Positions 3,184-57,374 of a DNA stretch of 64,000 bases are shown here, piece after piece. Both the position numbers and the translations under genes were made by a program. The stretch's first letter is position 1. Every line of letters starts with the position of its first letter. The notes beneath the pieces are model-generated. The model searched no databases. It worked only from the letters and a program-made list of their open reading frames with translations, and was not told the origin of the DNA. This DNA is from Planctomycetota bacterium (GTDB lineage: Bacteria; Planctomycetota; UBA8108; SXIK01), in contig CBDCXR010000004.1 in NCBI GenBank assembly GCA_965223845.1, positions 3,104,001-3,168,000 on the forward strand, read 5' to 3'.

Positions 3184-3186
3184 AGA

Positions 3187-29497: not shown

Positions 29498-32400
29498 CTA
29501 CTCACACGCACTCGGGCAATCCTGAATGCGGCGACACGCGTCGATCGGGCCGAGCACGGGCTCGGCGCCGTCCGCGAAGAGGTACAGGAGACCGGCGATT
29601 CCATCGGAGATGTTGACCGCATCGTCGCCGTTCCAATCCATGAGCGTGACGTTCGCCGAGTCGTCCGCGCTCCCGTCACCGCAGGGAAGCGACTTCGGTT
29701 CACCGCCGAAGAGGAAGCCCAAGAGACAGATCGGATCGGCGATGTTGACCGCCCCGTCGACATTGCAGTCGAACGGCAGAGCCGCTCCGACCTCGCCGCC
29801 GCCGAGCGAGCACACCGCGCTTCCGGGGAGCGACATGAGCTCACCGACCATGGCGCGGACCTCGTATTCGCCCGGCTGAACCCGCAGCGACACGCGGTCC
29901 TCGAACAGGGTCGCTTGACCGTCGAGGATGTCGACGAGGTGGCCGTCTCGGTAAACCCGAATCGAGTCGTACGCGTCCCCGTTCTCCCATTTGAGGGTGA
30001 CGACGCGCTCCGAGCGAAGCGCGATGGCGTTGCAGGCGATTCCGCTCGGCGGCTCAACTCCGATGTCGAGGACGATCGGCTCTTCCGGGCGCCCCTTGCG
30101 GCGTTCCTTCCAAGCCCGACCGGCGCCGGCGACCTGCAGCTCGACGAGTCCCGCCGCCTGCGTTTCGAGTGAACCGACGATGCGAGCGCTCCGTCCCGTC
30201 GGATCCGCCTCCACCGAGACGTCCGACCATTCGTGCCCGGCGACGCTTCGCTTCGAGCGCATCTGCACGTCGAAGCTCGGCAGCTCATCCATGGGAGCGA
30301 GTCCGACATTCCGCAGATCGACCATCGCCTTGACCGTGGAGCCGGCGGGAGCGTGACGGTCACTGACCGCGAACCGATCGACGATCACTTCCGGCTCGAG
30401 GAGAGCAGCGTAGGAGCGCACGCCTGCGTCGACGTTTCCGCGCTCGAGGTGCGTCGTGTTCACGACGCAGAGATCACCGGCTCCTCCCTTCGCGATCGCT
30501 AGCTCCCAATCACGCTCGCCGTCGCGATCGAGATCCTTCACGAACCACGTCGCGTTCTCGCCCATGCTCGGGTAGTAGGTCGCGACCAGGGCGTCGCCGT
30601 CGAGCGTGAGCGGACCGTTCGCTCCCGGAGGCGGAAGCGGAAGGGACGGCGTCCCGAAGACGGTGTCACGCGCGGGGCCGCCGGCATTGAACGTTCGCGC
30701 TACGAGGCCGAAGGACTCGTCCTCGGGATCCCAGACGATGTCCGGAAAGACTCCGACCGCGACCGTCCAGCCCGGAGGACAGTTTCCGCGCTGAAGCGGA
30801 TAGGCCTGGCCGAAGGTTCCGTTGAGAAGCACGGCGGTGTAGATCACCTGCTGGTTCCCCGCACCGGTAGTAATCGCCGGACCGTCGAGCGTGTTGACGA
30901 GCGGCTGGTCCGCGGTGAACGTCAACATGCCGTCGTTGTCCGACGAGAGCGCGATCGACGGCATCTCGAGTCCGAGGAGACCGAAGTCGAGCGTCTCGAC
31001 CGGAGTCCAGACACCGTCGATGCGCATCGAAAACGCGAGCGCGCGGTCTGTGCTCGTGCCGAGGAGTCCGTCGATATCTTGGACCCACACGACGGCGACG
31101 GTGTCTCCACTCGGCGACACGGAGATTTCCGGCTCGTAGTCCGCAACCGGCTGGCCCGGCACGGCGTCGGAAATCTGCTCGACCGGTCCGAGCGAACCCC
31201 CGGCCCCGATCCGGCGCGCGACGACTTCGAGCTTCTGCCGAAGCATCGTGCCGTCCGGAGCGAGGATGTCGCTGTCTTCGCTCCGCGTCCAGACGCACCA
31301 CGCCTCGCCGGCTCCCGGTGCGGCCGCCACCTCGGGGCGTCCCTCGGGAAGCTGGTTCTGCGTGATGGCTTCTGCGGCCGACCAACCACCCGCGTTCGTC
31401 CACATGGAATAGAAGATCTCTTCGTTCCGGAAGATCTCGGCGGTCGCCTCGGTGTCCTCCATGTTCTCCGTGATCTGCTCGATCTCGGCGAACGAAAGCG
31501 TGTTCTCGGTCCACACCGCGATCGCTTGCGTATCGCTCATGAACGCCAGCGACGAATCCCGGCGGAGTCGATCGGTAGGAGCAAAGAGAGGCTGCGGCGC
31601 GGTCCAGCCGGCACCGGCGTCCTGAGAGAAGAAGAGTTCGGGATCGTAGATTTCGGGATCGGGAGCCGCGTCCTTCATGAACACCAGGAGTGTGCGTCCA
31701 CCCGACGGGCTCGTGGCGACCGACGGATGCGTCTGCTGCGGAATCGACGGATCGACGCCGATGCCTCCCGCCCCGCCGCAGCCGCCGCCCCACTCGTTCT
31801 CGTAGACGTGAAAGGTCTTGCCGACGCAGAAGAGTCCCCACAGCGCACAGGCGTGAACCTCGGCGTCGATGTCGAGACCGAGACAGAAGCCGACGTCGAT
31901 GCCGAGGTCGTTTCCGTCCCATCCGACGGTGATCGGCAACCCGAACGATCCTGTCGGATTGATCGATGCGCCCACCGACCCGAGTCCACTCGCGACCACG
32001 AGGTCGATTCCGCCGGTGACCCCGAGCGACAGCACGGGCTCGAAGGTGTACTCGAACTGAAAGTGGGGTTGGTTGCGACTCAGCTGCACGCGGATGTCAT
32101 TGAAGAGTGCGGCGCCGAGATTCACGCCGAGCTTCCCCCAGAGCTCGAGGTCGACTCCGAGCACCTTGCCGCTGACGAGAGGACCCTGAAAGAGCGTCCA
32201 GTCGAAGTCCTTCTCGAGAATCTTGAAGTTGTTGAGCTCGTAGACGATGTCGAAGTCCGGGCAGAGGAAGAATACCTGTCCCGGAATCTCCGCGTTCGGA
32301 TTGATCGACCACTGCTTGTTGACGATGTCGTAGTTGATCAGCTTGAGCGCGAGCACGGCTTTGGCTTCGTCCGCGAACCACTTCTCGTCCTCGAGCCGCA

Positions 32401-35400: not shown

Positions 35401-35479
35401 GACCGGCGTGAGCGAGAACGGCGAGCGTGAGAAGCACGACTCGCCCGCTTGGAAGGAAAGCACGTTCTGGGGTCCCCAT
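29498..35479 (-). CDS. 1993-aa secreted surface protein: ~5 IPT/TIG domains, PKD, long beta-rich region, CARDB/FN3-like domains, C-terminal dockerin-like module
   Basis: RBS AGGAG; signal peptide ending AMA-Q; IPT repeats V.P...GG..V.I.G.GF; PKD ITQYIWDFGNG; C-terminus DCNVDGAVNIAD...DWNGDDAVNISD...CPSACE. Confidence 0.9.
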   Translation of the reverse strand: MGTPERAFLPSGRVVLLTLAVLAHAGPAMAQSLRSVDPSELDAAGGAEVTVSGSGFDAGHYVTIGAQPLTSAKVVDASTIRGIAPAADPGTYDLTLYGRGGERIARIRDAVTYVSSQSSAVIKAVDPDEHSASGGSAIAILGNGFIADHSVHIGGEPVAQLSFVSGQRLEGVVPAHEPGDYDVELYEGERLVATLQDGVTYVGAGSRVRIVDVVPEQVPLAGGVRIQIVGEGFENGQAVHVDDQPIQDLVVVSSRLMEGTAPGRDEPGLAGVTIYADLTRVAFLPDAIEYVADLPAVKVGRVHPREHWRSGGSFVAIDGENFTPELVAKFGDSPILDQQFIDSTRIVGRVPPAGPELKGGGTIPTSTLSLNFDKISLIEVPGAIIYRDLEIEIVDVYPSELPTDGGRVTVVFEDPLERSRTYEVFGFAGAHRVRLDGVLHATVTLPPRDPGTYDLSIGTDTRDATATLEAAVTYVTPELPPVQDVNCEYLGGGRGARLSWSHVILADIVRIFCDGEPMAELEGDARELIIPQSEWDELTRGGDENHEFTIELDGPAVDALGARAPSVSCAIGGFTDCPLPVPTGGTGIATDELLPLTGDDSIERRTYFTLDEDATNGVRIRVHGSRYRYGGDLKARLRSILPPYDIIVDNIDVNNLPVSTHNRWTEAIFPVPLVKGDYVVGFYVDGGGDNFEIYGLTKDAAAQELPPPFPCTPYPLIQVYPLSDNIPPLIHQIRRVTTGPGVGGWLANGFPNGGGGGIGGDGAAGGANDDEITMTFACDAEDSDGHITQYIWDFGNGPAVSAGNKVTRTFPRGKLVQARVTVKDNACGSSTEFRAFGTGIPPSDADSFVALVPPRIFGIDPIPAEKKYIPNIATDVNVTFYTQVAPSNFGEITEVRFEVIHAANDNVVYLSESATMFDGHPKLSWWKATLNMSDVPNVSEARVRIRVEDSDDKEAEETWPISFCPKPAFLDLPLITTEISYNKTSHRYTVEGSFPGQLLWEHDFTIPLLVTDLVIENHAEARATTRMRLEDEKWFADEAKAVLALKLINYDIVNKQWSINPNAEIPGQVFFLCPDFDIVYELNNFKILEKDFDWTLFQGPLVSGKVLGVDLELWGKLGVNLGAALFNDIRVQLSRNQPHFQFEYTFEPVLSLGVTGGIDLVVASGLGSVGASINPTGSFGLPITVGWDGNDLGIDVGFCLGLDIDAEVHACALWGLFCVGKTFHVYENEWGGGCGGAGGIGVDPSIPQQTHPSVATSPSGGRTLLVFMKDAAPDPEIYDPELFFSQDAGAGWTAPQPLFAPTDRLRRDSSLAFMSDTQAIAVWTENTLSFAEIEQITENMEDTEATAEIFRNEEIFYSMWTNAGGWSAAEAITQNQLPEGRPEVAAAPGAGEAWCVWTRSEDSDILAPDGTMLRQKLEVVARRIGAGGSLGPVEQISDAVPGQPVADYEPEISVSPSGDTVAVVWVQDIDGLLGTSTDRALAFSMRIDGVWTPVETLDFGLLGLEMPSIALSSDNDGMLTFTADQPLVNTLDGPAITTGAGNQQVIYTAVLLNGTFGQAYPLQRGNCPPGWTVAVGVFPDIVWDPEDESFGLVARTFNAGGPARDTVFGTPSLPLPPPGANGPLTLDGDALVATYYPSMGENATWFVKDLDRDGERDWELAIAKGGAGDLCVVNTTHLERGNVDAGVRSYAALLEPEVIVDRFAVSDRHAPAGSTVKAMVDLRNVGLAPMDELPSFDVQMRSKRSVAGHEWSDVSVEADPTGRSARIVGSLETQAAGLVELQVAGAGRAWKERRKGRPEEPIVLDIGVEPPSGIACNAIALRSERVVTLKWENGDAYDSIRVYRDGHLVDILDGQATLFEDRVSLRVQPGEYEVRAMVGELMSLPGSAVCSLGGGEVGAALPFDCNVDGAVNIADPICLLGFLFGGEPKSLPCGDGSADDSANVTLMDWNGDDAVNISDGIAGLLYLFADGAEPVLGPIDACRRIQDCPSACE

Positions 35480-35959: not shown

Positions 35960-38900
35960 TCAGAACCCGCATACGGTCGGGCAGTCCTCGATGCGCACGC
36001 AACCCTCCCCCAGTGCCGGCTGCGCGCCATTCGCGAAGAGGTAGTTGAGAAGGGCGACCGCGTCGGCGACGTTCACTCCTTCGTCCCCGTTCACGTCGAG
36101 GAGAAGAGCGCTTCCTCCCGATGCGAGCGGCGCGCCGTCGCAAGGAATCGGTCGCTCCGTCCCGCCGAACAAGTGGAGGAGGAGGGCGAGAGCGTCCGCG
36201 ACATCGAGACGACCGTCCTGATTTCCGTCACCCGGCCGCTGCCAGCCGCTGACTCCGCCGCTGTCTTCCGCCGCTCCCGGCGATCCGCCGATGTCGCCGC
36301 TCGCCGTCCAGCTCGCCGCGTCGGCCCAGCTCGCGGCCGGAGCGGTTTCATCGACGATGACGAGCGAGAACCCCTCTCCGTCCGTCGCCGGTTGCCAAGA
36401 ATCCGCGTATTCGAGCTCGAGGAGGGTCTCGCCGATCGGTCCGACGAGACGGATCGGGTCGGTCCGGTTGCTGAGCTTGCCGTCGTACTCGCCCGCGATC
36501 TGCATCCCGGCGGTGTCGTAGCGCTCCTCGAACGCCGAGAGGTTCCGCACGATGAGCGCGAACTCCCCGGGGCCGAGAAGCGGAACCGCGCTGCCGGCAA
36601 ACGAGAAGCGAACGCCGCCCTCGATGCGGATTCGCGAGAGGTCGAGCGTGTCCGGTCCGACGTTCCGCACCTCGACGAACTCGAAATCGTCGTCCCCGTG
36701 AAGGCTCTCCGGCGGCGGGGCCGGCGGGTGGTACATGAGCTCGGTGATCCGCAGCGGAAACTCGCTCTCGACCACGAAGACCGCTTCGTTGAGCGCACTC
36801 CATTCTCCATCGTCGAGCGTTCGCGCCCGCACTCGCGACGTGTTCGTGAGCGAGATCGGTCCCGTGTAGGTGTCGGCGTCGGGGTCCATCGGATCGCCCC
36901 CGTTCACGGTGTAGACGATGTCCCCCGACGGAACTCCAGTCTCCTCCGTGAGACCGATCAGCTCGGTGATGATCAGCATGTCACTCGACGTCGGACTCGT
37001 GTTGAGTCCGTGGATCGCGAGGAGGTTCTCCCCGACGCGAAGGTGCTCGATCGCGCTGCGCACGTTGTGGTCGACGGGAGACGTCGGGCTCGCCTCGCCA
37101 CCCGTTGTCGAGGCGGAGTTCCAGGCGATCGCGGCTTCGGACGGGGCGTTCGACGACGCGATGCGCTCGCCGTTGAGATAGGCCGCGAAGCCGTCGTCCG
37201 CAACCATGCGGAGAACCAAGTCGTCGAGATTCGCGATCGTCGCTGCGTCGGCGATCGAAAACGGAATCCGAACGTAGACGGACGTGTTGCCGCCACTCAT
37301 CTCGCTCTCGAAATCGATCTCGAGCCAGTTCTCGTAGCCGGAGCCCGTCTCGTAGCCGACTCCGTTTCCGCCGCTCGTCCACGTCTCGCCGCTCGAGCCT
37401 TCGGAGTAGGTTCTCTCACGCCACGCCGTGCCGAGAGAGTCGTCGGCGGGCACGACCGCGCGAATCGCGTCATCTCGCCCGACGAACGTCGTCTCCTCGA
37501 AGCCGAGCACGAGCTCGACCGTCATGGTGAGCGAGTCGCCTTCGTCGACAAAACCGCCGTAGCTTTCATCCCCCTCGAGGTGGAACACCGGGGCGGCGAT
37601 CTCCGGGTAGAGTCCGACGCGACGGAAGCGCTCGAGCGCGATGGGATGGATCCCGTCCCAGTACGTCTCCTGCACGAATTCCTGCTCGGCCAGCCATTCG
37701 ATTTCGCGTTTGTAGGGGACGGATTTCTTCGAATCACCCCACCGCGCGGACTCACCAACGATGGCTCGGTCGATCTCCGTGGCGCGATTCGCCCAGCGCT
37801 CGCGACTCGCTTCGGCGGTCAGCAGCCCATCGCCGAAGAGGTGGCGGTGCACGCGATCACCGAAGTCGCGACGGAAGTTCTCGTTCGCCATGAGGCGGCC
37901 GTAGAGAAACGACGGGGAAGCCGCCGAAATCGGATCTTCGAAGCGCGTTTGAAAGAGCGTGTGCGTCCGGATGAGCGAATCGTTCGAGATCTCTTGGTCC
38001 CAGACGAAAAACTGGTACCCCAGGCTCTCCGGCCCCCGGCGCCGAGCCGCCCACCAGTTGTGATTCGGCCAGTCTTCCGCGCCGGCGTAGATGTGGAGCA
38101 CCATGTAGTCGATGAGGCTGTCGACGTGGAGATAGTTGGGAAAGTCGGGATTCGGAACGCCGTCCGGGTCGTTCCCCTGAATTCTCTGGTAGGCGGAATC
38201 CGGACCGAGCCCTGCGTTCGCGAGCGCGATCATCTCGTCCCACGCCGTTCGCCGCCCCGACTGAAGCTCCGCGAAGTCCTTGATCACGTCGTACTCGTCC
38301 TTGTCACCGCCCAGGTGCTCGGCATTGAACGAGTCGGTCGGGCGCTCGGACGGATTGTAGAGACCCCAGTAGAGTCCGTTGAGAAACAGGTGAACGTAGG
38401 TTCCATGACCAGAGGGACGCCCCATCGCGATCTGCGCATCGCGCATCCACTGATCGCGCATGTAGGTCGCGTGTCGCGCCGCCCAGCGCTGTACACCGAG
38501 AACGGAACCGCCGTCGACCACCGGCCACGAGTCCGTCGACGCACCGCGGAGTAGGATCTGATCGAATCGATCGACGCGCGAGCCATCGAAAAGCGGATAA
38601 CGCAGCTTCGACGGCCCGTAGCGGCTCTTGAAGAGAACGCGGATCGGATGCTTCGGCGTGAAGCCGTGATTGCGACTCGAGTTCCCGTGCATGCGGATTC
38701 CGGCGTTCACTTGAAATCCGTCGCGACCATCGGGCCCATCCTGCCCGGGCGGATAGAAGAGCTCGATCGATGCGAGCCGCTCCCACGCCGGGCCGCGGTT
38801 ACGGGAGTTCGCGTAGATCCCCGTTGAGCCTTCAAAGAGATTCGCGGGATCTGTCGTGACGCTCATCGTCGGAATCGCGAGCAGGGCCTCTTCGAAGCTG

Positions 38901-41682: not shown

Positions 41683-44600
41683 TCACTCACACGGCGGAAA
41701 CCGATCGCACCCGATCGGTTCCGCGCGAGTTTCGACGCCGCAGACCGCGACCGGGTCCTCGGGCGGGCGTCCCGTCCCGAAGAGGAAGTTGAGAAGCGCG
41801 ATCGCGTCGGTAATCGTCAAGCCGCCGTCGCCGTCGACATCGCCGCTCGCCGCGCAGAGGAGCGGATCTCCGTCGGCGAAGAGAAACTCGAGGACGTACA
41901 CCGCGTCCGCGACGTTCGCGCCGCCGTCGGCGTTCGCGTCGCCGCGCCGGAACTGCACCCGCGGATCGTCGCCGACGACGACGTCCACCGTCGCGCGTGT
42001 CGACGCGCCGAACTCGTCGGTGACGTCGAGAATCACCGCGTGCGTTCCGGGAGTGTTGAACGTCGTGAGCACGAGTCCCCGGCTGTCGGATTCCCCCCCG
42101 ATCGTCCAGCGGTATTCGAGCGCGTCGCCCTCGGCGTCGCTCGACCCCGTCGCGTCGAAGAGCACCGTGAGCGGCGGGGCTCCGCGCAGGGTAGAAGCAG
42201 TGATGCGCGCAACGGGCGACGCGTTCGCATCCGCGGCGACGCCCGGCGACCAACCGGCGCGCCAGCTCGTCGCCTCGTCATTGTCGACATCGAGCCCGAC
42301 GCGCTCTAGGCTCGCGCCTTCGCCATCCGCCGCGTCGGGCCAGTCGCCGTCGTCGAGATAGACGACGCTGTCGATGAGCTCGGGAAAGTACTTTCCGCCC
42401 TCTCCGTCGTCGCGGAGTCGGACGATCTCGCCTCCGTTCGAGAGTCGACCCGAATAGGGGCCGAAGGTTTTCGTTTCGGCTGGGGCGATCTTGGCGACCT
42501 CGCCCGGGTCTCGCGCGACGAGAAACACTTCCCCTGCGGTTGCAACGGCTCCCGGCGGAAACGTGAACTCGATGGCCGGAATCGTCCAACCTGCGAGGTC
42601 GACGTCGGCTTCGTGTCGATTCACGATCTCGAGGAACTCCGTCACGTCTTCGCCGTCGGGGTTGTAGTGAATCTCCGTAATCTCGAGCCGAGGTGCAGGC
42701 TCGTACTCGAATCGCCGCCCCTGCGTCGTCGGCGACAGGCGCGTGAGAAAGCCGCGGAGAAACGTGGTTCGGCGCGAGACGTAGAGTCGGAAATCATCCC
42801 GCCAAAACTCGGAGTCGGTGCTCCGACTGCCCCACCGCCGCCAGCGCGCGAGATCGCGACGCGCGAGGTCCGCCGTCGCGGTGTCGTAGGCGTCGATCTT
42901 GGGGCCGAGCACACTCGGCTGGAACTTCTCTTCGACGAGGTGCCAGATGCGCCCGTAGAACGCCTTGATGTAGTAGTCGTCGGGCGCACGCTGAAGAAGC
43001 GCGTTCAGGATCCCGTGGTAGCCCTGGTCGTGAAACGGATAGGTCTGAGTCTGAAACAGCGGGTGCTCGTTGTAGACGCGAACATCGGTCGTGAGAAGCA
43101 TCTGACCGAACGTGAGGTCGACGTCCCAGGGAAAGCACGTCACCAGGAACGGACCGTCGCCGGCGAGGTCTTGCCGACCGTAGTAGAGGAGCCAGTTCTT
43201 CACGACCGAATCGCCGTCCGTGATGATCGCCTGGACCGCCTGGTAATCGATCACCCCTTCGACGTGGAGCCGCGAGTTCAGAAACTCGATCAGCTCCGTG
43301 CCCCGCAGTCGATTGAGATCCCCCGCGAAGCTCCCGATCTCCGGGAGTAGATCGGGCGCCGCATCGTTCCGCGGCTCGTAGCCTCCGGTCGATGAGGAGA
43401 GCATCGGGTTTCGCGCCTTGTAGAGTCCACCGCTCGGATCGAGTCGATTCCGCCGCAGATAGTCCTCCCGCGGATCTTCGATCGTGAAGAACGCGCCGTG
43501 GAATCGGCCGCCGTTCGAGCGCACCTCGGCCATGTGCGTCTCCGAATACGCAACCCCCGCGTCACGGAAGAGATCGAACGCGAACTGCTCGCGCAGCATC
43601 GACTTGTCGTTCCACCCCGCGTTGAAGTTGAGTCGCGACTGCCCTTCGAACTGGTCGCCCTTGTTGAAGCGAACGCGAAGCGGCTTCTTCGGGTAGCTGC
43701 ACGCGGTTTCGCCGCGAAACTTGACGCCGACGCTCCGGTACGCCCGTCCATCCGGGTCGACGAGTACACCGGATCGGTAGGTTCCAGGGTTGCACGAGAG
43801 ATCGCTCAGCGCTCCCGGCGTGAAGATGTGAAAGAGGCGAATCGGCGGCGCAGGCTCCGGCCAGTGATCGGAGACGTAGTAGCCACGGGTCGAAATCGGA
43901 TTCTTCGTCCGGGGCCACTTCGTCGCCGCGCCACCGCTCGTCGAAGCTTCGAACGAGTACCACACTAGCGAGTCGTCGGGCGCGGGAGGGATCGCCGCGC
44001 TCCAGAGTCCGTCGCCCGCGTGCGCATCCGGCAACTCACCGTCGTCGCGCAGCGGCAGGGTTTCGATCTCCGCCCCGGAGACCTGGTACTGGACCGCTGC
44101 CGAAGCGATGTCCTTGCCCTCGATTCTCACTACGAGTGTCACGTCGTCTTCGGGGGCCGCCCAGAGCGGCGAGCGCTCGACGAACCGAATCGTCGGCGGC
44201 ACCTCGTTCGGGGGGAGCTCGGCCGCGCCGACCTCGTTCGACGCGAGCGGCGTACCCGCTACCCCGCGCGCGCCGGTTACGGCGTCGCCCTCGAGCTGGA
44301 GAAGGCCCGAGTCTTCGCGCGTCACGGATGACCGAGCGATGAACGCGCTCGTGCCGGAGAGGTGCTTCATCCGGAAGCGAAGGACGAGCGGCGTCTCCGC
44401 CGGAGGACGCTCGGGAAAGGTCACGCGCAGAGCGTTTTGAAAGCCGTCGCCGTTTCCGGTCGAGCGGATGCGCGCACAGGGTCCGTCGTCGCCGAATCCG
44501 CCGGCCTCCTCGGCGACGCTCGTCTCGTGATTCCCGGTTCCGCGCCAGCGTCCGAGCCCGGCGTCGAACTCGTGATCGGGGAAATAGTTCAGCTCACCGC

Positions 44601-45777
44601 CGTCCTTTTCGAAGAGCTCGACGGCGTCGAGGAGGACTTCACCTTCGCCCAGAAGATAAAAATAGAATCTCGGCCCTTCGTGAAGGCCGACGAGTTCGAA
44701 GGTGAGCCATTCGCCGCCGCCCGGCGAACTCGCCTCGACCGGCGCGACCCGCCAGTTGCCCGGAGCGTCCGACGGACCGAGCGGCTGAACGCGCTGGAGG
44801 GTCCCGCCGAGACCATCGGCGAGCGCGGGCCACGCGCCGGCGTCGTTGTACGAAACCTCATCCCGTACGGAACCGAGCGCGTCGACGAGCCGCACCGTCT
44901 CCCCTCCGTCGGAGAGCGTCGAACCGTCGGCGAAGGGGCCGTGGACGAGGTCCGCAATGAGCCCGAATCGAGTAACGAGCTCGGGCGGATCCTGCGCCAC
45001 CAACACGAATTCTCCCGGCGGAATGACCGTCCCCGCCGCGAAGACGAAGGAGACGCCGCGGTCGAGCGACCATCCGCCGATGTCTTGCGGGACATCCGTG
45101 CGATTGACGAACTCGATGTACTCGAGCGGGACGTCGATCTCGGGATGGTAATTGATCTCGTTGATGACGACCGGCGAGCGCGCGAGATCCTCGGGAATCG
45201 GCGCGAGGGCGCAGTCGTCGAGGCTCCCGGTCACGCCGGGCGTCGGAGCTGACGCCGACCAGTTGAAGGGAGCCTCGCCCGGGAGCGCCTCGCAGCGCAG
45301 GTGAAGCGATTCGCCGGCGCCGTCGGCGGCGGTGGGAAACGGGTACCCGTCGCGAAACCTCACCTCGTCGATGAGCAGGCCGAATCCGTCGACGAGTCGC
45401 AGCCGCTCGCCGTCGTTGTCGAGCGCGCCCGAGAACGGGAAGACGGAAACTCCGGCCGGGACGCTCCACCTGGCGCGCAGCGCCTCGGGATCGCGCGCGA
45501 AGACGACCGTCCCTCCCGAAGGGATTTCCAGCGATCCCGGCGCGCCCGCGCGGATCCCGCTCGTGAACGACCAGCCGCGAATGTCGACGGCGCCCGGAGA
45601 GACATTCGCGAGCTCGACGTACTCGAGCGCGGCGTCGTCCTTCGGGTGGTAGTGGATCTCGGTGATGCGAAGCGGCGCCGCGGAGATCACGACGGGAGCA
45701 GCGGCGAAGAGCAGCGCGCACGCGAAGCCGCCGAATCGCCGGCTTCCTAGAAAGGTCCGATCAGCAGTCGAGGTCAT
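41683..45777 (-). CDS. Lamin-tail-domain (x3) / CotH kinase / PKD protein with C-terminal dockerin-like module
   Basis: Likely start ATG 45777 overlapping the upstream stop; LTDs ITEIHYHP, INEINYHP, ITEIHYNP; LRDDG...GDG motif; CotH GVKFRG, DSVVKNW, PWDVDLTFG; PKD; FRRGDANADG dockerin. Confidence 0.9.
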   Translation of the reverse strand: MTSTADRTFLGSRRFGGFACALLFAAAPVVISAAPLRITEIHYHPKDDAALEYVELANVSPGAVDIRGWSFTSGIRAGAPGSLEIPSGGTVVFARDPEALRARWSVPAGVSVFPFSGALDNDGERLRLVDGFGLLIDEVRFRDGYPFPTAADGAGESLHLRCEALPGEAPFNWSASAPTPGVTGSLDDCALAPIPEDLARSPVVINEINYHPEIDVPLEYIEFVNRTDVPQDIGGWSLDRGVSFVFAAGTVIPPGEFVLVAQDPPELVTRFGLIADLVHGPFADGSTLSDGGETVRLVDALGSVRDEVSYNDAGAWPALADGLGGTLQRVQPLGPSDAPGNWRVAPVEASSPGGGEWLTFELVGLHEGPRFYFYLLGEGEVLLDAVELFEKDGGELNYFPDHEFDAGLGRWRGTGNHETSVAEEAGGFGDDGPCARIRSTGNGDGFQNALRVTFPERPPAETPLVLRFRMKHLSGTSAFIARSSVTREDSGLLQLEGDAVTGARGVAGTPLASNEVGAAELPPNEVPPTIRFVERSPLWAAPEDDVTLVVRIEGKDIASAAVQYQVSGAEIETLPLRDDGELPDAHAGDGLWSAAIPPAPDDSLVWYSFEASTSGGAATKWPRTKNPISTRGYYVSDHWPEPAPPIRLFHIFTPGALSDLSCNPGTYRSGVLVDPDGRAYRSVGVKFRGETACSYPKKPLRVRFNKGDQFEGQSRLNFNAGWNDKSMLREQFAFDLFRDAGVAYSETHMAEVRSNGGRFHGAFFTIEDPREDYLRRNRLDPSGGLYKARNPMLSSSTGGYEPRNDAAPDLLPEIGSFAGDLNRLRGTELIEFLNSRLHVEGVIDYQAVQAIITDGDSVVKNWLLYYGRQDLAGDGPFLVTCFPWDVDLTFGQMLLTTDVRVYNEHPLFQTQTYPFHDQGYHGILNALLQRAPDDYYIKAFYGRIWHLVEEKFQPSVLGPKIDAYDTATADLARRDLARWRRWGSRSTDSEFWRDDFRLYVSRRTTFLRGFLTRLSPTTQGRRFEYEPAPRLEITEIHYNPDGEDVTEFLEIVNRHEADVDLAGWTIPAIEFTFPPGAVATAGEVFLVARDPGEVAKIAPAETKTFGPYSGRLSNGGEIVRLRDDGEGGKYFPELIDSVVYLDDGDWPDAADGEGASLERVGLDVDNDEATSWRAGWSPGVAADANASPVARITASTLRGAPPLTVLFDATGSSDAEGDALEYRWTIGGESDSRGLVLTTFNTPGTHAVILDVTDEFGASTRATVDVVVGDDPRVQFRRGDANADGGANVADAVYVLEFLFADGDPLLCAASGDVDGDGGLTITDAIALLNFLFGTGRPPEDPVAVCGVETRAEPIGCDRFPPCE

Positions 45778-48700
45778 CGGGCGTGACATCCGCTCCAGGA
45801 TGGGGGAACGGCGCGGCGGGCGGGTCGCCGGTTCCAAAGAGGTAATTGAGCGAACGAATCGGATCGGAGATGTCGATCCCGCCGTCGTCGTCCGTGTCTG
45901 CGGCATCCTCGCAAACGATGCTTCCGTCGGCAAAGAGATAGAACAGCGTCGCGATTGGATCGCCGATGTTGAGTCCGCCGTCTCGATTCGCGTCGCCGCG
46001 GATGAAGAGCACTCGCTCGTACGTGAATCCCCCGAACGCGACGACGCTCGCTTCTTCGACTGCGAGGCGAAGATCGACGCGCCCGTTCTCGGGGAGATCA
46101 TCCGGAGCCGGTGGGCTCACCGCGACCGCGAGCTCGGGCGAGCGGACATCGATCGAGGTCGCCTCCACTCCCCCAAAACGAATCGACAGATTCTCGCCGA
46201 ACCCGGTCCCGACGAACGTGACTTCCGTACCGCCCTCGGCGGGGCCGGAGTCGGGGCTCCAAGTCTCGAGCGTCGGCGGATCGGGGACACGTGACGAGCG
46301 GACGGTGAGCGACAGCTCGCCGACGAACTCGCCGTAGCCGTCGAAGCCGAAGAAGCGGAGCTCGTGGAGCTCCCGGGTTGTCGGAAACTCGAAAGACCAG
46401 CGCGTGACCGACGACCAAACGGGCGAAATGAGCTCCGTGTCGCCACCGTCGACCTCGACGTAGATCTGCTCGACGCGAAGCGGCGCCTCACCCTCGATCT
46501 CGACGTCGCGCTCCTCGGTTACGAGCGTTTCCCCGTCGCCCGATCGGATGCGAAAGGACGCCGTCGCGGAAGAGCGAACGAGCGACTCGACGCGCGACTT
46601 GACGGTGTTGATGTAGCCCTTGAAGCTCGAGGCGTTCACGCCGGTCGATCGCGTCACGGCGTCCATCCAAGGTCCGGCCGCGTCGACCGACCAGTAGCCG
46701 TCCGTGTATTGCTCGAGCGCCCGAAAGTACACGCGGCGCGGTTCGGGTCGGCTGAGGAGGCGCGCTGCGTGCACGTCGCCGGTGGGGAAAAAGCCCGCGT
46801 TCGGGTTCCCCATCGAGTTGTCCATGTCGAAGGGAAGGAGCTCCCACTTGCCGTCGGTCGGATCGTAAACGCAGTAGCCGTTGTGACCGTTTCCTACGAA
46901 GACCGCGTCCCAGTCGGAGGTCAGGATGCGGACGGCGAGCATGCGGAGATAGGCGTCGAGGTCGAGGACATCGCCCACGCGCGCGTCAAACTCGGCGTCG
47001 CGAGTCACGCGCCGGTCCATCACGCGCGTGAGCTCGATCCACTCGTCCCAACGATCCCGCGACTTGTGGATCGTGTGAGTCCAGTACCCGCGGTAGTTCT
47101 CCGCCTCCTCGTCCATATGCCAAAACGACGCCCCATCCCAATGCGATCTCGCGCACACGTCATTGAACGCGAGTCGCCCCACCGCTTTGATCACGATGGC
47201 TTCGTCGACTGCCTCGTCGCCGTACCATTTCTCGATGTAGTCGCCGTCGACCGGCTGGATCATCGCGTGGGTGCCGAGCGAGTTGCCGTTGAAGTGCGTG
47301 CGGATGTAGTGGTAGTCGGCGGTCGGCGCCGGCGCGTGCGGCCCGTTCGCTCTTCCGGCGAGAAAGTAGGCGACCCCTTCGCGCGCGTTCGCGCCGCGAC
47401 TCGAGAGGTTGATCGCCTTTCGGCCGCGATGGAAGCGATCGTCGTCGGGAAAACGAACGCGGAAATTCGTACGTCCGGGACGCCCCCACGGACTACCGCG
47501 ATAGCGGAGACCAATGTTGTACGTCGCCTCTTCGTCGTCGAAGACGAACGCCCCGTCGACGAGGTCGTTCGAATGGAGCGGACGCGTTCGGAGCTCGGTG
47601 TCGCTCGTGGCGTCGAGAATCACTCGGTAGACGTCGAGGCGGTCGGTCTCGGGCCCGGCCGCTTGGAAGAGACAAACTCGCTCGGGCGCATCGACGGGAA
47701 AGCGGCGCAAGGCACCGCTGGAGTCGACCGCTTCAACGTAGTAAACGACGCGGCGATTGCGATCGAATCCGGGAAGAGAGCCGCCGAAGACGCCATCGCC
47801 CGCGGCACCATCGCCGCGGACCCCGTCGTCGCGCAGATCGATGGACTCGGAGAACGTCCCCGCGCGATCATTCTCCCGGTAGTAGACCTTGACCGACTCG
47901 ATGCCGTCGGCGTCCGAGACGCGCGCGGTCACGATCGTCGGGACACCGGCCGCGGGCGAGACCGGAGCATGCGAGACATCCGAAATCACCGGGCCGAGAT
48001 TCGCCGCCCCGCTTTCCTCGCGCAGCCGGCGCGTCACGCTGTTTTCGCTTCCCGGCGTGCCGAGATTCCACGGGACGGTGAGGCGCAGCCGCGCCGCGAG
48101 GGTGTTTCCGGACAAGTTTTCGGCGGGCGCGGGGCGTCCGGGCCACGGCCCCGGCGTGAACTCGCCGTGCGCGATGAGGAGGCTGCTCCCGCGGATCCAG
48201 CGCGCCCAAAGCGAAACGTCGTAAGCGCCGCGCGCGAGTCTCGGCCGCGTGTCCGTCTCGATGCGATTGCAGAGAGAATCCCCCTTCGCCGAGGCGTCGA
48301 TTCGGAGACACGCGTTTCCGGAGTGGCTGTCGTCCGTGACGCGCCGGCTCCGCACGTGCGTCCCCTGGATCACCCACGGAGTAGTCGAGCTCTCGAATCC
48401 GGGATTCGGAATGCGGTTCTCCCCGCCGCCGTCCGGAGTGATCGAGACATCATCGATGTGACAGGTTCCGCGCTCCGAGAGGAAAAGATGGAGTTCCGTA
48501 TCCGCGGTCGGGGCGTAATTCGAGACGAAGAACTCGAGTTTCTCCCAATCGGCTTTCTCGCTCTCGTCGCTCGCGTCCCAGGCCGACGCGACATCGTTGT
48601 CCTGCCTCGGGTCGATGAGCTCGAGCGAGGCGCCCCGGCCGTCCGCCCACTCGGACCAGCGCCCGCCGTCGAAGTAGCGCACCTCATCGACGAGGTTCCC

Positions 48701-50500: not shown

Positions 50501-50757
50501 TGTTTCGGCTCCCTCCGAGATTTCGACGGCCCCGTCCGGTTACCTGCGCGGCGGCGGCCCGCCCCTCACTATCCCTCACGGTCGCGCGCGGAGCGAGTTT
50601 TAAAGTGTATCGAGCGACCCCGGAGAGATAGACTCGGGGCGTTAGGGTCGATCTCGACTTCACGAGGATCGTCGAAGCGCCTCCGCCGTTGCGGGACGTC
50701 TTCGAGGTGTAGGCGCCGACTTTGCGTCGGCGTTTGGAGGGATACAAAGGAGGTGTG

Positions 50758-53439
50758 ATGCGCGCGCTCTACCTGGGTTCTGCCGTTCTGCTTGTCTCGC
50801 TCGCTTTGACGCCGGTCGTCCGAGCCCTCGACGCTCCGGTTTACATCAACTTCGGTGGTCCAGAGGTGGTCGACTCGTTCGGCCGCACGTGGCTCGGTGA
50901 TCAGGGTGCGGGGGCCGACGTGCTCGATATCCGGCCCGACGACGCGGGCGGATTCAATACGATAGAAGGCTGGTGCAATCCGTCGGCTGCGTCCGTCTCC
51001 GCACTCGTCGCGGATTCGTCTCTCGGTGTCAACTTCAACGGTTCGCACCCGGGAGACGTGAACCTCTTCCGCAGCATCCGCTGGGACCTCGGCGGGGAAG
51101 CTCCCGACTACGTGGTCGAGATTCCGATCGCGCCCGGTTCCTATCGCGTCGCCGCGTACTTCTGCGAGAGCTGCTGCCCCAATCGCCACTCGAAGGTCCT
51201 CATTCAGGGTGAAGTCGCGTTTCCGGATGTGAGTGTGGCCTCCTACGCCGGCGGCGCGACCCACACGCCCGGTGTGCACGAGCAGGCGGACGTCATGGTC
51301 GGCGAGGACGGAATCCTCAACCTCACGCTCCTCGGCTGTCTCGATCCGGAGTGTCCCGGAGGTGGCGACGGCAATCCGACGCTCACCGCGCTCGCCGTTG
51401 TCCCGTCGGATTTCGACCCTTGCTCCGATCCGGGCTTCCGCGCTTGCCCCGGTGGACTCGGTTCGTCCGTCGACGGCGACGGCAACGTCTCGCTTTCCTG
51501 GAACGCCCCGGTCTGCATCGCGCCGACGGGCTACGAAGTCAGCCGCGACGGAGAGGTCATCGCGAACATCGCAGGCGATTCGCTGTCCTTCGACGACTCG
51601 ACCGCTAGTCGCCTCACCAACTACTCGATCCAGGCGCAGTTCGACGACGACACCGTCTGCCCGCCGATGGAGATCACCGTCCTCCGCGAGGAAGTGGCGT
51701 TCGACGTCCCCGTTCGCATCAACATGGGTGGTGTACGGACCACCGACAGCCTCGGCCGAGAGTGGCTCGGTGACGGACCCGGCGGCGGCGATCCCCTCGC
51801 GATCCGCCCGAACGACCTCGGCGGAGCGAACACGATCGAGTTCTGGTGTGCGCTCAACACGGCGCTCGAGCCGGACGCCCTGCAGGCTCTCGGCCTCGAC
51901 CCCTACAACTCGAGCGATGTCTACGTCTTCAACACGATCCGCTGGGACAACGGAGGCGATGCCGAGGACTACGCGCTCGAGCTTCCGATTGCCGATGGCG
52001 ACTACATCGTGAACCTCTACTTTAACGAGTGCGGGGGCGGTACGAACCGCCACTTCAAAATTGAAATGGAGGGTGCGAGTGTCGACAACGATGTCAATTC
52101 CGGGAGGTATTCCGCGGTCGCGGCGTCCGGTCGAACGGGGATTCTGTCCTATGACGCGACCGTCGCCGACGGCGCGCTCAGCATCTCGCTCCTCCCCTGT
52201 GGCGAGTGCCTCGGCGCGACCGACACGAATCCGATTCTGAACGCAGTCGAGGTCGTCCCGGCCGGAACGGTGACCCCCGTTTGCGCGCGCCAGCTGAGAG
52301 CGACAGCAAACGAGGCAGGAGACATGGTCGACCTCGCGTGGATGGCGCCGATCGACGCCGGCCAGACCGGTTACGACGTCCTCCGAAACGGCGCGAGCAT
52401 CGGCATGGCCGCCGCCGACGCGACCACGTTCACCGACGACTCGCCGCCGTGTAACCGCACGGTTCTCTACGAGCTCGTTCCGCTCTTCGAGGGGGACTCA
52501 CCGTGTCCGGGCATCGAGCTCCGGGCGGTGGTTACGCTTCCCGATTGTCCCTTCGCAGCGCCGATTCGCGTCAACATGGGTGGACGTACGGCGAGCGATT
52601 CGAGCGGCAATCTCTGGGTCGGAGATCCGGGCGCCGGAGCGGACGTGCTCGGGATGCGACCGAATGACGATGGCGGAACGAATGCGATCGAGAACTGGTC
52701 GGCCGGGATCCTCGACGCCGACTCGTTCACGAAGCTCGGGCTCGATCCGACGCACCCCGGCGACGTTCACGTCTTCACATCGATCCGCTGGGATCCGGCG
52801 AACGACGCGGCGAACTTCATCATGGATCTCCCGCTCGCCGAGCCGGGCACCTACACAGTGAACATGTACTTCAACGAGGCGTGCTGCGTCGGCCGGAACT
52901 TCAAGATTCAGGTCCACGGTGCGATCCTCGACGACAACGTGAGCTACCTCGACTACGACGCCGAGCCGGCGCTCGGGAAGTCGGGTGTCCTCAGCTTCGA
53001 AGGAGTCCTCGCGCTCGACAATATCCTCATCGGACTTCTGCCGTGTCCCGAGTGCCCGCGCCCAGCGGGAGTCGGAGCGGACAACAACGCGATCATCGAT
53101 GCCCTTGAGATCATTCGCACCGGCGACGTCCCCGATGGGACCACCATCCAGATAGCCGGCGATTGCAACCAAGACGGCGGACTCGACATCTCCGATCTCA
53201 TGTGCTCGATTCGCACGCTGTTCCCGGGATTCCTGCTCCTAGGCTCGAGTCCGAGTCCCTGCGGAACGCCCGAGGGTGACGCGGCGCTCCTCGATTTCGA
53301 CGGGAGTGGCGGCTTCAGCACCGTCGACGTCGTCGGGTTCGCGCAGTACCTCTTCGGCGGCGGGCAAGGACCGGCGCTCGGCACCGGTTGCGGGCCCATC
53401 ACCGTTCCGGGCTGTAACGCGAGCGCGAGCTGCCCGTAA
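50758..53439 (+). CDS. Secreted protein with three Cys-rich malectin-like domains alternating with FN3-like modules, plus C-terminal dockerin-like module
   Basis: RBS AAGGAGGTG before ATG 50758; signal peptide VRA-L; repeats IN(F/M)GG...DS.G..W..D...IRWD...G.Y.V..YF.E...R.F.I...N..(L/I).A(L/V)E. Confidence 0.88.
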   Translation: MRALYLGSAVLLVSLALTPVVRALDAPVYINFGGPEVVDSFGRTWLGDQGAGADVLDIRPDDAGGFNTIEGWCNPSAASVSALVADSSLGVNFNGSHPGDVNLFRSIRWDLGGEAPDYVVEIPIAPGSYRVAAYFCESCCPNRHSKVLIQGEVAFPDVSVASYAGGATHTPGVHEQADVMVGEDGILNLTLLGCLDPECPGGGDGNPTLTALAVVPSDFDPCSDPGFRACPGGLGSSVDGDGNVSLSWNAPVCIAPTGYEVSRDGEVIANIAGDSLSFDDSTASRLTNYSIQAQFDDDTVCPPMEITVLREEVAFDVPVRINMGGVRTTDSLGREWLGDGPGGGDPLAIRPNDLGGANTIEFWCALNTALEPDALQALGLDPYNSSDVYVFNTIRWDNGGDAEDYALELPIADGDYIVNLYFNECGGGTNRHFKIEMEGASVDNDVNSGRYSAVAASGRTGILSYDATVADGALSISLLPCGECLGATDTNPILNAVEVVPAGTVTPVCARQLRATANEAGDMVDLAWMAPIDAGQTGYDVLRNGASIGMAAADATTFTDDSPPCNRTVLYELVPLFEGDSPCPGIELRAVVTLPDCPFAAPIRVNMGGRTASDSSGNLWVGDPGAGADVLGMRPNDDGGTNAIENWSAGILDADSFTKLGLDPTHPGDVHVFTSIRWDPANDAANFIMDLPLAEPGTYTVNMYFNEACCVGRNFKIQVHGAILDDNVSYLDYDAEPALGKSGVLSFEGVLALDNILIGLLPCPECPRPAGVGADNNAIIDALEIIRTGDVPDGTTIQIAGDCNQDGGLDISDLMCSIRTLFPGFLLLGSSPSPCGTPEGDAALLDFDGSGGFSTVDVVGFAQYLFGGGQGPALGTGCGPITVPGCNASASCP

Positions 53440-53483
53440 CGCGACTCGTCATTGTTTCGATTTCAACCGATCGTTGGGGAAGG

Positions 53484-53523
53484 GTGGGTCGAGTCCGGGA
53501 CAAGCGTCCCGGGCTCGACCCAC
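53484..53523 (+). other. Intergenic 18-bp stem-loop without U-tract
   Basis: GTGGGTCGAGTCCGGGAC-AAGC-GTCCCGGGCTCGACCCAC (one G-U pair), lying between the two malectin-like genes. Confidence 0.8.
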
Positions 53524-53552
53524 GGTTATCCATCTCAGGAGGGGGTCCCATC

Positions 53553-56500: not shown

Positions 56501-57374
56501 GGCTCCGGTCCGCCTCAATATGGGCGGCGCGACGACCCCGGACTCGAAGGGGAACATCTGGGTCGGAGACGGCCCGGGCGCCGGCGATCCGCTCGACATC
56601 CGCCCCGAGGACGGCGGCGGAACGAACACGATCGAAAACTGGAGCGCCGGACTGCTCGCCGACGACACGTTCGAGAAGCTCGGCCTCGACCCGACGCATC
56701 CGGGCGACGTCTACATCTTCAACACGATCCGCTGGGACAACGCGGCGGACGGACCGGATTTCGATTTCCGCATGGAGATCCCGATCGACGACGGCGACTA
56801 CGACGTCCACTTCTACTTCAACGAAGCGTGCTGTCGCGGGCGTCACTTCCAGATCGAGCTGGAAGGTGAGGTGCTCAACGACGACGTGAGCTACACCGAT
56901 TACGACGAGACGCCGGACCTCGGCCGAGCGGGACGCCTCAGCTTCCCCGAGATCGCGGTCACCGGCGACATCCTCGAGATCGGCCTCCTTCCCTGCCCGC
57001 TCTGCGAGCGCGAGGCGGGCGCCGGCGTCGACAACAACGCGATCATCGACGCGATCGAGATCGTTCGTTCCGGCGACATGCCGCGCGACGAGTTCAAGCG
57101 CGGCGACGCCAACACCGACGGCTCGGTCAACATCGCCGACATGATCTTCATGCTGAACCGCCTCTTCGGCGACGGCGGCCTTCCGACCTGCCTCGAGACC
57201 GCGGATCTGAACGGCGATGCGAACTTCAACATCGCCGACGCAATCTTCGGTCTCAACCGGCTCTTCGGTGACGGTCCGCCGCCGATCGACGGTCACGGAC
57301 CGGACGGGGACGAGTGCGGTGAAGACCCGAACCCGGGGAACTCGCTCGGGTGCGAGTTCTACGACAAGTGCTGA
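53553..57374 (+). CDS. Secreted protein with four Cys-rich malectin-like domains, FN3-like modules and C-terminal dockerin-like module (paralog of the upstream gene)
   Basis: RBS AGGAGG before ATG 53553; signal peptide AAA-Q; repeats VPVRINMGG, TPLRINLGG, VPLYINMGG, APVRLNMGG; FKRGDANTDG dockerin. Confidence 0.88.
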   Translation: MRPIHRVVCSAGFALLLAAPAAAQELFNVPVRINMGGPELTDSYERVWLSDRDDCGGAQNVDPLNIRPDDQGGENAICDWAMGNFQPDSLDNLGFDSFDPNDVSIFNTIRWDNGGNAIDFFMEIPIPAGFYHVNMYFTEGCCTGRHFKIELQGEIVDDDVSYLDYDEEAPALGRTGVLGFSDIEVGDDQILRIGLLPCPECPREAGEGIDNNAIIDALEIISDANCDHLGMDFNSEFDTETGRVFGSWNGVAGAEAYRILRNGDPLGDDLASNARSFVDANPGDAGTAGVRYTVQALDGGVPISECSSFVKTFACPSDLVCEVTAGEAEVALSWNPGAGLDVSGFEIRANGELIDTLGPDASVYEHEPTERNIAYTVTPITDPPGGCSEMTCTVCVDGAAFETPLRINLGGPELVDSLGRVWLSDNLGTQDELCIRPDDGGGFNNIVNWCPQTPESVEALGFDPTNPNDTSILGTIRWDVGGDGVDWMLELPLADDGEDSYTVTMYFNECCCPGRHFQIAIEEELVEEDVAASDFFQAGSLANVGARVYEDIIVDDGALTVHFIPCPDPDCPGANDINAICSAIEVVPSTFDPCSNPDFTQCPQGLTCVVGANGAVSGEWEGPLCFDVQGYEVRRDGDLIDTLAADATSFTDTLEARIGNYTVTPLVGEGDRACSAMSCSVVRPEIPFAVPLYINMGGPATVDSRGRQWLGDEGNTDPLGIRPDTAGGPNSIVNWCPRTAVSENDSYESLGFDPNAESDRLILNSIRWDVGDDDQDFQIGNDLDPDDIDFRLEIPVPNGDYLVSAYFAECGGPGARHFSVEVQGDLVAEDVSTLEYSDIARPGRLGRLDFDDISVTDGILRVGFLPCPDCVDAIDFNPIVNALAIQAAGSAEPICARDLICEVDGGSVTGSWVPGIGVEVTGYEVLRNGQLIDTLGADATSFDDDVPCSRVTTYEVRPMTDGDSPCPNLAMRCTITDLTCPFEAPVRLNMGGATTPDSKGNIWVGDGPGAGDPLDIRPEDGGGTNTIENWSAGLLADDTFEKLGLDPTHPGDVYIFNTIRWDNAADGPDFDFRMEIPIDDGDYDVHFYFNEACCRGRHFQIELEGEVLNDDVSYTDYDETPDLGRAGRLSFPEIAVTGDILEIGLLPCPLCEREAGAGVDNNAIIDAIEIVRSGDMPRDEFKRGDANTDGSVNIADMIFMLNRLFGDGGLPTCLETADLNGDANFNIADAIFGLNRLFGDGPPPIDGHGPDGDECGEDPNPGNSLGCEFYDKC

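Follow-up and report, generated by a model that had tools for sequence, protein, structure and literature searches.

Dockerin-tailed CotH and malectin proteins of a planctomycete as probable cargo in a non-cellulolytic cohesin-dockerin system that spans the genome

Clostridium (Acetivibrio) thermocellum has a true cellulosome, with a multi-cohesin scaffoldin bearing CBM3 and dozens of glycoside hydrolases (GHs), and encodes one or two CotH proteins per genome. Outside cellulose degradation, cohesin-dockerin systems are known mostly as domain counts and from one genome-based hypothesis, the non-cellulolytic 'planctosome' proposed for planctomycetes in 2019 (Andrei et al., ISME J, PMC6461901). 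In the accessible text of that paper, the model has Zn peptidase cargo and a 2210 amino acid (aa) LTD protein with a cohesin as the proposed membrane anchor (PMC6461901). The cellulosomal proteins that the available part of another source lists for C. thermocellum include the CotH protein CseP/Cthe_0044 and Cthe_0239, with the domain order LTD, LTD, Fn3, CotH (PMC6083626), and a 2025 review describes the role of cellulosomal CotH proteins, in its available section, as 'not clear yet' (PMC12484212). Here we analysed a 64-kb stretch (the window, G000:C4:3104001-3168000) of a 7.93 Mb Planctomycetota genome, in which six consecutive genes, P0001 to P0006, each end in a dockerin-like tail. An earlier note on this DNA, made from the sequence letters, had presented them as a candidate for an undescribed dockerin-tagged assembly of kinases and lectins; the planctosome proposal and the listed LTD-CotH cellulosomal proteins take the word 'undescribed' from that claim.

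In our reading, to which we give a probability of about 0.6, the six proteins belong to the cargo of a non-cellulolytic cohesin-dockerin system that extends over the whole genome and the whole lineage, and the block encoding them is a conserved CotH-plus-malectin module within this cargo. The proteins would be exported through Sec, each ending in a dockerin of two loops and two helices; after export this module would fold with Ca2+ and probably a disulfide staple, and would plug into cohesins on about 32 small adaptor proteins encoded elsewhere. Nearly all of these adaptors have one to four dockerins themselves and could join to one another as chains or as a lattice, on the cell or around it. 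P0004, a CotH enzyme whose companions P0003 and P0002 vary, would be paired with the multi-malectin proteins P0005 and P0006, whose lectin arrays would most likely place catalytically competent CotH enzymes at a substrate or surface that bears glycans. P0001 would be a local neighbour with the same common tag. Location at the cell surface, kinase activity and its substrate are presumed in this scheme.

The six-gene block and its dockerin tails

The block (29498-57374) consists of six long open reading frames (ORFs), of which the first four lie on the minus strand and the last two on the plus strand (Table 1). The layout given in the earlier note was confirmed: all six ORFs, of exported type and with a C-terminal two-loop tail, lie where it had placed them, and the two arms diverge from the intergenic region that it had named. 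By eye, all six N-termini resemble signal peptides, with a basic stretch followed by a hydrophobic run and A-x-A. Pfam searches also bore out the described cargo of three CotH proteins, two multi-malectin proteins and one IPT/PKD protein. CotH (PF08757, cut-off 23.8 bits) scored 68.4 bits in P0002, 130 in P0003 and 60.8 in P0004, each of which also contains LTD, while Malectin (PF11721, cut-off 23 bits) scored 56.1 bits in P0005 and 75 in P0006. P0001 matched TIG at 109 bits in 4 stretches, as well as PKD, and has a middle region of about 1000 aa without a Pfam family; an Atlas search with its residues 840-1890 returned COG1470/fn3-type clusters at scores of at most 0.89, below 0.9 and therefore leads only. 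As the note had stated, no GH catalytic domain was detected by Pfam in the six proteins, which have accessory domains only (CHB_HEX_C_1 and a weak RGI_lyase beta-sheet).

The P0003 reading frame is open to 46101 (41683-46101, 1472 aa) and is over-extended at this length: its first 104 codons are the P0004 tail read out of frame. The likely start is the methionine at 45789, 27 bp past the P0004 stop, and P0003 is probably co-transcribed with P0004.

Table 1. Features of the six-gene block and of its flanks, in window coordinates
Feature	Position	Strand	Description
P0001	29498..35479	(-)	1993 aa; signal peptide (by eye), four IPT/TIG repeats, PKD, C-terminal dockerin
P0001 dockerin tail	29501-29794	(-)	loops DCNVDGAVNIAD and DWNGDDAVNISD
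P0002	35960..41545	(-)	1861 aa; signal peptide (by eye), LTD, Laminin_G_3, CHB_HEX_C_1/Fn3_assoc, CotH, second LTD, dockerin
P0002 CotH domain	~37688-38470	(-)	
P0002 dockerin tail	35963-36253	(-)	
P0003	41683..45789	(-)	likely 1368 aa; signal peptide (by eye), three LTD, CotH, PKD, dockerin
P0003 CotH domain	42829-43725	(-)	
P0003 dockerin tail	41686-41964	(-)	
P0004	45761..50500	(-)	1579 aa; signal peptide (by eye), three LTD, CotH, IPT/TIG, dockerin; first gene of the minus arm
P0004 CotH domain	46694-47509	(-)	
P0004 dockerin tail	45764-46018	(-)	
Divergent intergenic region	50501..50757	.	separates the CotH arm from the malectin arm
P0005	50722..53439	(+)	905 aa, ATG 50758; signal peptide (by eye), three malectin-like units, dockerin
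P0005 dockerin tail	53137-53436	(+)	
P0006	53484..57374	(+)	1296 aa, ATG 53553; signal peptide (by eye), four malectin-like units, dockerin
P0006 dockerin tail	57081-57371	(+)	
ECF sigma factor and Ser/Thr kinase	25289-29426	(+)	PF07638 sigma factor (190 bits); 1194-aa kinase with WD40 propellers; 8 bp overlap
Na/Pi cotransporter, PAS histidine kinase, PhoD-like phosphatase	57496-63959		downstream of the block

All six tails contain two tandem 12-residue Ca loops of the D-x-N/D-x-D-G-...-D type, and the residue pairs at loop positions 10/11 were exactly as previously listed in all twelve loops (IA/IS, VA/VA, VA/IT, IG/IS, IS/TV and IA/IA). When the whole proteins were scanned with Dockerin_1 (PF00404, cut-off 22.9 bits), P0006 alone exceeded the cut-off with 24.9 bits; P0002 reached 19.1 bits and the remaining four proteins were unlisted at E<=0.01. 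A six-frame scan of the genome with the same model gave 29.9 bits for P0006 and 22.9 bits for P0002. Searched against the Protein Data Bank (PDB), a local profile of 15 tails matched 26 sequences at E<=0.01, nearly all of them dockerins (best 2y3n_B, 3.7e-8), and this search also matched four EF-hand-type Ca-binding proteins. The P0006 tail was the one chosen for structure prediction. Its AlphaFold model, built with the 15-tail alignment, had a mean predicted local distance difference test score (pLDDT) of 83.6 and a predicted template modelling score of 0.77, with predicted helices at residues 21-32 and 54-65, one after each loop. Foldseek comparison of this model with the PDB yielded dockerin chains throughout among the matches listed (to rank 34), the best dozen with target-normalised TM (template modelling)-scores of 0.67-0.82 and root-mean-square deviations of 1.4-2.4 A; the E-values were weak (best 0.011; about 60 aligned residues) because the domain is small. 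By profile and predicted fold the tail is a genuine type-I-like dockerin, and the profile search, the P0006 tail model and Foldseek together support the fold assigned to the tails in the earlier note.

This local dockerin variant has an added Pro-rich C-terminal extension. Furthermore, a pair of Cys residues, one in the inter-repeat linker and one near the end, is invariant in the 15 aligned tails. Among the 282 C-terminal tails found genome-wide, the linker Cys is present in 73% and the near-end Cys in 75%, and 279 of the 282 contain at least two Cys. The pair would probably form a disulfide staple.

A genome-wide tag and its candidate cohesin partners

A hidden Markov model of the six tails detected the module, hereafter the tag, in 314 stop-to-stop ORFs across the genome. 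The E-value was at most 1e-5 for 313 of the 314, and the module ended no more than 40 aa from the stop in 282 of the 314. The Pfam dockerin model gave at least 151 matches (150 of 421 first-look candidates scored). Genes were called crudely, by a filter on G+C content at third codon positions (GC3) that returned 4615 genes of at least 100 aa covering 85% of the genome. The filter kept 295 of the 314 tagged ORFs, so that 6.4% of the called genes carry the tag, with a share of 0.7% at 100-300 aa, 3.5% at 300-600 aa, 12.4% at 600-1000 aa, 25.8% at 1000-1500 aa and 44.4% at 1500 aa or more. Besides the six, the main contig has 307 tagged ORFs (308 genome-wide), from which 40 were drawn at random and scanned with Pfam at E<=1e-5. 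None of the 40 had a GH catalytic domain, 5 were CotH proteins and 13 had no Pfam family; the domains of the remainder were of LTD, lectin-type, FG-GAP, beta-helix, PKD/TIG, lysyl-oxidase, di-haem peroxidase and further kinds. F5/8-type-C, GH115_C or CHB_HEX_C modules accompanied other CotH proteins in this sample. Elsewhere in the genome, a dockerin-tagged protein of 1834 aa (L080, G000:C4:2431656-2437157, minus strand) combines FG-GAP repeats with the AMP/ATP-binding domain PPDK_N (61.3 bits), a further case of an exported and tagged protein with a fold that uses nucleotides.

The earlier note had taken the near-uniform residues at loop positions 10/11 as a sign that all six proteins dock on one shared receptor. 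The 314 tails yielded 457 loops, of which 435 have I/V/L at position 10 and 432 have A/S/T/G at position 11, with IA and IS as the commonest pairs; the pattern of the six is the consensus of the genome. Nor do the six tails stand together as a group. Their mean pairwise identity was 0.37, and that of pairs drawn at random from the 282 C-terminal tails was 0.39 +/- 0.07. In the ranking for any one of the six, its five companions came 18th to 278th of 281, and its nearest relatives (up to 80% identity) lay elsewhere in the genome. The tags of the six are not special within the genome-wide system. The idea of an assembly local to the block likewise found no support, given 314 tagged ORFs and the absence of a cohesin carrier from the 64-kb window and from six related neighbourhoods.

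A further objection, that so common a tag would make six in a row expected by chance, held in part. The tag is common indeed; the run, however, is not chance, and its core is syntenic elsewhere. When the tag was shuffled over the 4615 crude gene calls, the longest run was at least six in 0.05% of 2000 plain shuffles and in 0.3% of 5000 length-stratified ones. Clustering of tagged genes is a general habit of this genome, which has further runs of 10 (one), 5 (two) and 4 (five); runs of at least three numbered 18 compared to 1.1-1.8 expected, and 11 of these 18 include a CotH gene. Raw density was discarded as evidence: at least six tagged ORFs per 28 kb were found in 73% of random placements, and the gene-order test alone is meaningful. 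The longest run lies outside the window (G000:C4:1046690-1070661) and consists of ten consecutive dockerin genes, mostly of about 480-680 aa, the first two of which carry cohesin-like domains; the run resembles a tandem array of paralogues.

A candidate partner family for the tag is encoded in the same genome, as emerged from the genome search for cohesins that the earlier note had proposed. Pfam Cohesin (PF00963) gave 16 genome matches at E<=1, 4 of them above the cut-off, and an iterated local profile identified 47 cohesin-like domains in 32 ORFs, 31 of which also have a dockerin. These carriers contain 1-3 cohesins and one to four dockerins (Coh and Doc) in orders such as Doc-Coh-Doc and Doc-Coh-Doc-Coh-Doc, one of them having 4 Doc and 3 Coh, and the dockerin module is found in them also in N-terminal and internal positions, alternating with the cohesins. 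A profile built from 11 of these domains matched cohesins in the PDB with E-values from 5e-8 to 1e-7, the matches covering its positions 7-137 of 141. The AlphaFold model of a cohesin was moderate (pLDDT 63.8), with a disordered insert of 49 residues, and its PDB matches were cohesin-containing chains throughout among those listed (to rank 50; best 6.8e-9). The cohesin profile had 39 matches in this genome and was positive in 31/31 genomes of the class, at 7-48 matches per genome. A single prediction without controls, in which one cohesin (L001) was co-folded with the P0006 dockerin and two Ca, scored 0.18 against a mark of 0.32 and has no bearing on binding in either direction.

In the 16 cohesin carriers scanned, the accompanying domains were PKD, Big_5, FG-GAP and CarboxypepD_reg only, and neither CBM3 nor SLH was found. 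A primary scaffoldin of the cellulosome type, combining many cohesins with a cellulose-binding module and a cell anchor, was not among the scanned carriers, and dockerin-borne GHs for the plant cell wall were absent from the six proteins and from the 40 sampled. What this planctomycete genome combines is cohesin and dockerin with non-cellulolytic cargo: it has a cohesin-dockerin system, not a cellulosome-type scaffoldin.

CotH enzymes and their pairing with malectin-like proteins

CotH proteins are the largest recognisable cargo class, with the dockerin tag on 54 of 67 CotH ORFs in the genome. P0003 and P0004 have Asp residues aligned to D224 and D247 of Bacillus cereus CotH (5jd9), which are spaced by 23 residues, as are D228 and D251 of B. 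subtilis CotH. P0002 keeps both catalytic-motif Asp in a five-way CotH alignment, in which the domains share 19-25% identity; a direct PDB match for its CotH domain was not obtained at E<=0.01. In the available text on the B. subtilis enzyme, D228 is the catalytic and D251 the metal-binding Asp, and CotH was inactivated by D228Q and D251A (PMC7821199). Judged by these residues, the CotH domains of P0002-P0004 look catalytically competent.

CotH was detected at E<=1e-30 in 26 of the 31 class genomes, and first-look candidates numbered 12-88 per genome across the order. In one family (f6) none of the four genomes (G023, G027, G029 and G030; 93-95% complete, 2.8-3.4 Mb) had CotH at this threshold, and these CotH-free genomes still contained 24-29 cohesin-profile matches each. 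This makes the cohesin-dockerin system older, or more widespread, than the expansion of CotH. A further CotH ORF of the present genome, without dockerin (G000:C4:3101405-3104344, minus strand), overlaps window positions 1-344.

P0005 and P0006 share 48% identity, and a local profile resolved 3 malectin-like units in P0005 and 4 in P0006, with an Ig/Fn3-like spacer after each unit in P0005. The malectin domain, which we take to be CBM57-like, suggests that these units bind glycans. Homologues of the P0005 malectin region were present in 1/3, 14/14 and 3/3 genomes of three families of the order, and P0005 matches in other families of the class covered the tail only. We also considered whether the P0005/P0006 malectin unit is paired with other CotH clusters of the genome and rejected this, the unit being confined to these two genes (7 units).

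Conservation of the block was compared in six related contig stretches (G002, G005, G007, G008, G009 and G012), chosen for their P0005 homologues. A P0004 orthologue lies head-to-head with malectin genes in all of them except G012; four of these orthologues are complete and have 46-52% identity, and the G007 copy, cut by the contig end, has 68% over the fragment. P0003 orthologues with 50-53% identity are present in three stretches (G002, G009 and G012), and a P0002 orthologue with 48% identity stands beside the malectin genes in one (G012). The C-terminal dockerin is kept in every complete orthologue of P0004 (4/4), P0003 (3/3) and P0002 (1/1) and in 10 of 11 malectin homologues, the eleventh running off its contig. 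These tail-keeping orthologues have 37-53% identity and are spread across three families. A P0004 search of genome contigs added one partial match, in a Verrucomicrobia metagenome-assembled genome (37% over residues 203-366), which is uninformative.

Moreover, two paralogues in the same genome, L028 (G000:C4:4637243-4640422, minus strand) and L029 (G000:C4:3454731-3457997, minus strand), are Malectin-CotH-LTD fusions without dockerin. L029 has lost the second catalytic motif, with VEHHR where the others have WD-x-D/E, and may be a pseudokinase. Conserved adjacency and gene fusion are the usual signs of a functional link. The conserved neighbourhood and the two fusions therefore argue for such a link between the kinase-fold enzyme and glycan-binding modules, and since the fusions lack a dockerin, the CotH-malectin link is independent of docking.

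Alternative explanations and relation to described systems

Several observations weigh against our reading of the six as docked cargo with a conserved CotH-malectin core. The cohesin-dockerin contact of these proteins is predicted, and no recognisable cell anchor was found among the 16 cohesin carriers scanned. The tag on 31 of 32 carriers fits a lattice and equally fits a tag with another purpose. Part of the cohesin count comes from an iterated profile, which could drift, and only 4 matches exceed the Pfam cut-off; the run statistics depend on crude GC3-filtered gene calls. P0001 falls outside the conserved set, as a homologue above 120 bits is absent from all six related stretches, and the genes flanking the block do not adjoin it there. 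By our own reasoning, a secreted ATP-dependent kinase would face no obvious extracellular supply of ATP, and phosphorylation may not be what the CotH domains do.

As the earlier note had also allowed, the module might instead serve chiefly as a sorting or attachment signal for non-cohesin machinery, for instance in outer-membrane passage or in attachment to an envelope polymer, with cohesins mattering for the adaptors only. Such a role would suit its strictly C-terminal position in 282 of the 314 ORFs, its spread over about 6% of genes of very varied function, which is a distribution typical of sorting tags, the missing anchored scaffold among the scanned carriers, and the conserved Pro-rich, Cys-bearing extension, which is absent from the aligned clostridial dockerins. 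P0003 and P0004 also match NCBIfam 'choice-of-anchor X' at 25.9 bits (cut-off 25), a name that presumably denotes domains whose homologues bear different C-terminal anchors. We nevertheless regard a sorting role as unlikely. Known sortase, exosortase and rhombosortase signals have a hydrophobic helix or a basic end, neither of which this module has. Profile and model make it a folded dockerin, its N-terminal and internal copies alternating with cohesins are unlike a terminal sorting signal, and cohesins co-occur in all 31 class genomes. Less probable again is a partnerless, Ca-binding and disulfide-stabilised structural cap that has spread by domain shuffling among large secreted proteins. Both the regular alternation with cohesin modules in the adaptors and the match of both partners' folds to solved cohesin-dockerin complexes speak against a mere cap, as does the retention of the tail in diverged orthologues of three families; in its favour, the tail profile also touches EF-hand proteins (SCaMC-1 and polcalcin, E 1e-4 to 1e-2), and cohesin binding of the tails is itself a prediction. 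We consider this cap the least probable of the explanations.

Improbable as well, though not to the same degree as the cap, is a dedicated complex of the six on a single block-specific receptor or scaffold, a private kinase-plus-lectin surface machine. It would account for a run of six that is unlikely by chance, for the syntenic core with its kept tails, and for the fusion of CotH with malectin in two paralogues. However, the six tails resemble one another no more than randomly paired tails do, their 10/11 residues are those of the genome at large, no cohesin lies in the window or the related neighbourhoods, P0001 is not conserved with the others, and the two fusion proteins manage without a dockerin. 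The block is unlikely to be a private complex. Returning to cargo of a genome-wide system as the preferred reading, its lines can be drawn together into a more far-reaching proposal, in which CotH kinase-fold enzymes have multiplied in this planctomycete order, reaching dozens per genome, and form the main cargo of a self-linking Doc-Coh-Doc lattice without a classical scaffoldin. There CotH would work with glycan-binding modules, in trans as in the pair of P0004 and the malectin proteins or in cis as in the Malectin-CotH-LTD fusions and in combinations with F5/8-C, GH115_C or LamG, and would phosphorylate glycans or glycan-bearing substrates extracellularly or in the periplasm. We put this joint proposal forward as tentative and rather unlikely; if true, it would be a chemistry not described for bacterial surfaces.

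The remaining gene content of the window (PSCyt1/PSCyt2/PSD1, DUF1501 and a PF07638 extracytoplasmic function (ECF) sigma factor) fits Planctomycetota, as do 50 PSD1 matches in the genome against none in 14 control genomes, and the lack of an FtsZ_C match in this genome (91.7% complete), compared with its presence in 13 of 14 controls. Upstream, the ECF sigma factor and Ser/Thr kinase pair converges on P0001. Control of the block by the Pho regulon or by the ECF factor was considered and dropped, since the phosphate and ECF neighbours are not beside the block in the six related stretches. Among the sequencing runs listed as containing this DNA were four DNA runs from a single study and none of RNA. 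Other genes of the window include an Exo_endo_phos protein at 3127-3927 and, at 13958-17293 on the plus strand, a protein of 1112 aa in which G8 and CEMIP-type beta-helix domains are joined to a carbon-nitrogen hydrolase domain. A frame of at least 950 aa on the minus strand (2-2851), which runs off the window start, has N-terminal sigma-70 regions 2 and 4 and CarboxypepD_reg further on; its product could be a sigma factor extended to great length at the C-terminus.

Compared with the single-domain CotH spore-coat Ser/Thr kinase of Bacillus, of about 360 aa and located inside the mother cell, the proteins of the block share the Pfam CotH domain and both conserved catalytic-motif Asp, whereas they are exported multidomain proteins of 1400-1900 aa. 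With the clostridial and ruminococcal type I dockerins and cohesins (2y3n, 1daq, 2ccl and 5lxv) the system has in common the duplicated 12-residue Ca loop plus helix, the fold as predicted and, within one genome, genes for beta-sandwich cohesins as candidate partners. It differs in the residues at 10/11, which are I/V/L and A/S/T/G here and M-A/S-D and S-T in two aligned clostridial dockerins, Ser-Thr being the C. thermocellum rule, in the added Pro-rich extension with its Cys pair, and in that one of the six tails exceeds the Pfam cut-off in the whole-protein scan. As far as the available sources describe them, the dockerin-bearing LTD-CotH proteins of C. thermocellum have the type of architecture seen in P0002-P0004 and are likewise non-hydrolytic cargo with a kinase fold; the present genome is set apart by its 67 CotH ORFs, by the lack of GHs in the six and the 40 sampled proteins, and by the conserved pairing with malectin. 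In a literature search with little coverage of subscription journals we found nothing on CotH-malectin pairing in bacteria and, at the level of titles and the starts of abstracts, nothing on a CotH expansion in Planctomycetes.

The genome thus shows a non-cellulolytic system at very large scale, with about 6% of genes tagged, 39-47 cohesins and plug-and-socket adaptors. To this the block adds a concrete CotH-malectin pairing, kept across three families and fused in two paralogues, which offers a way into the role of dockerin-borne CotH proteins, for which an explanation has long been missing. Glycan-directed phosphorylation, if this is what the pairing reflects, would be a surface chemistry of a new kind; otherwise the block amounts to an ordinary gene cluster for tagged proteins of the surface. 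The closest described relative is the planctosome, as set out in the accessible text of its proposal: both are planctomycete cohesin-dockerin systems without sign of cellulose degradation, both models come from genomes only, and both include LTD proteins and an adaptor with dockerin as well as cohesin. Here, however, LTD sits in the dockerin-tagged CotH cargo and not in a cohesin-bearing anchor, none of which was found among the 16 carriers scanned, and in contrast to that model the largest cargo is CotH and the scale is far larger, with 314 dockerin ORFs.

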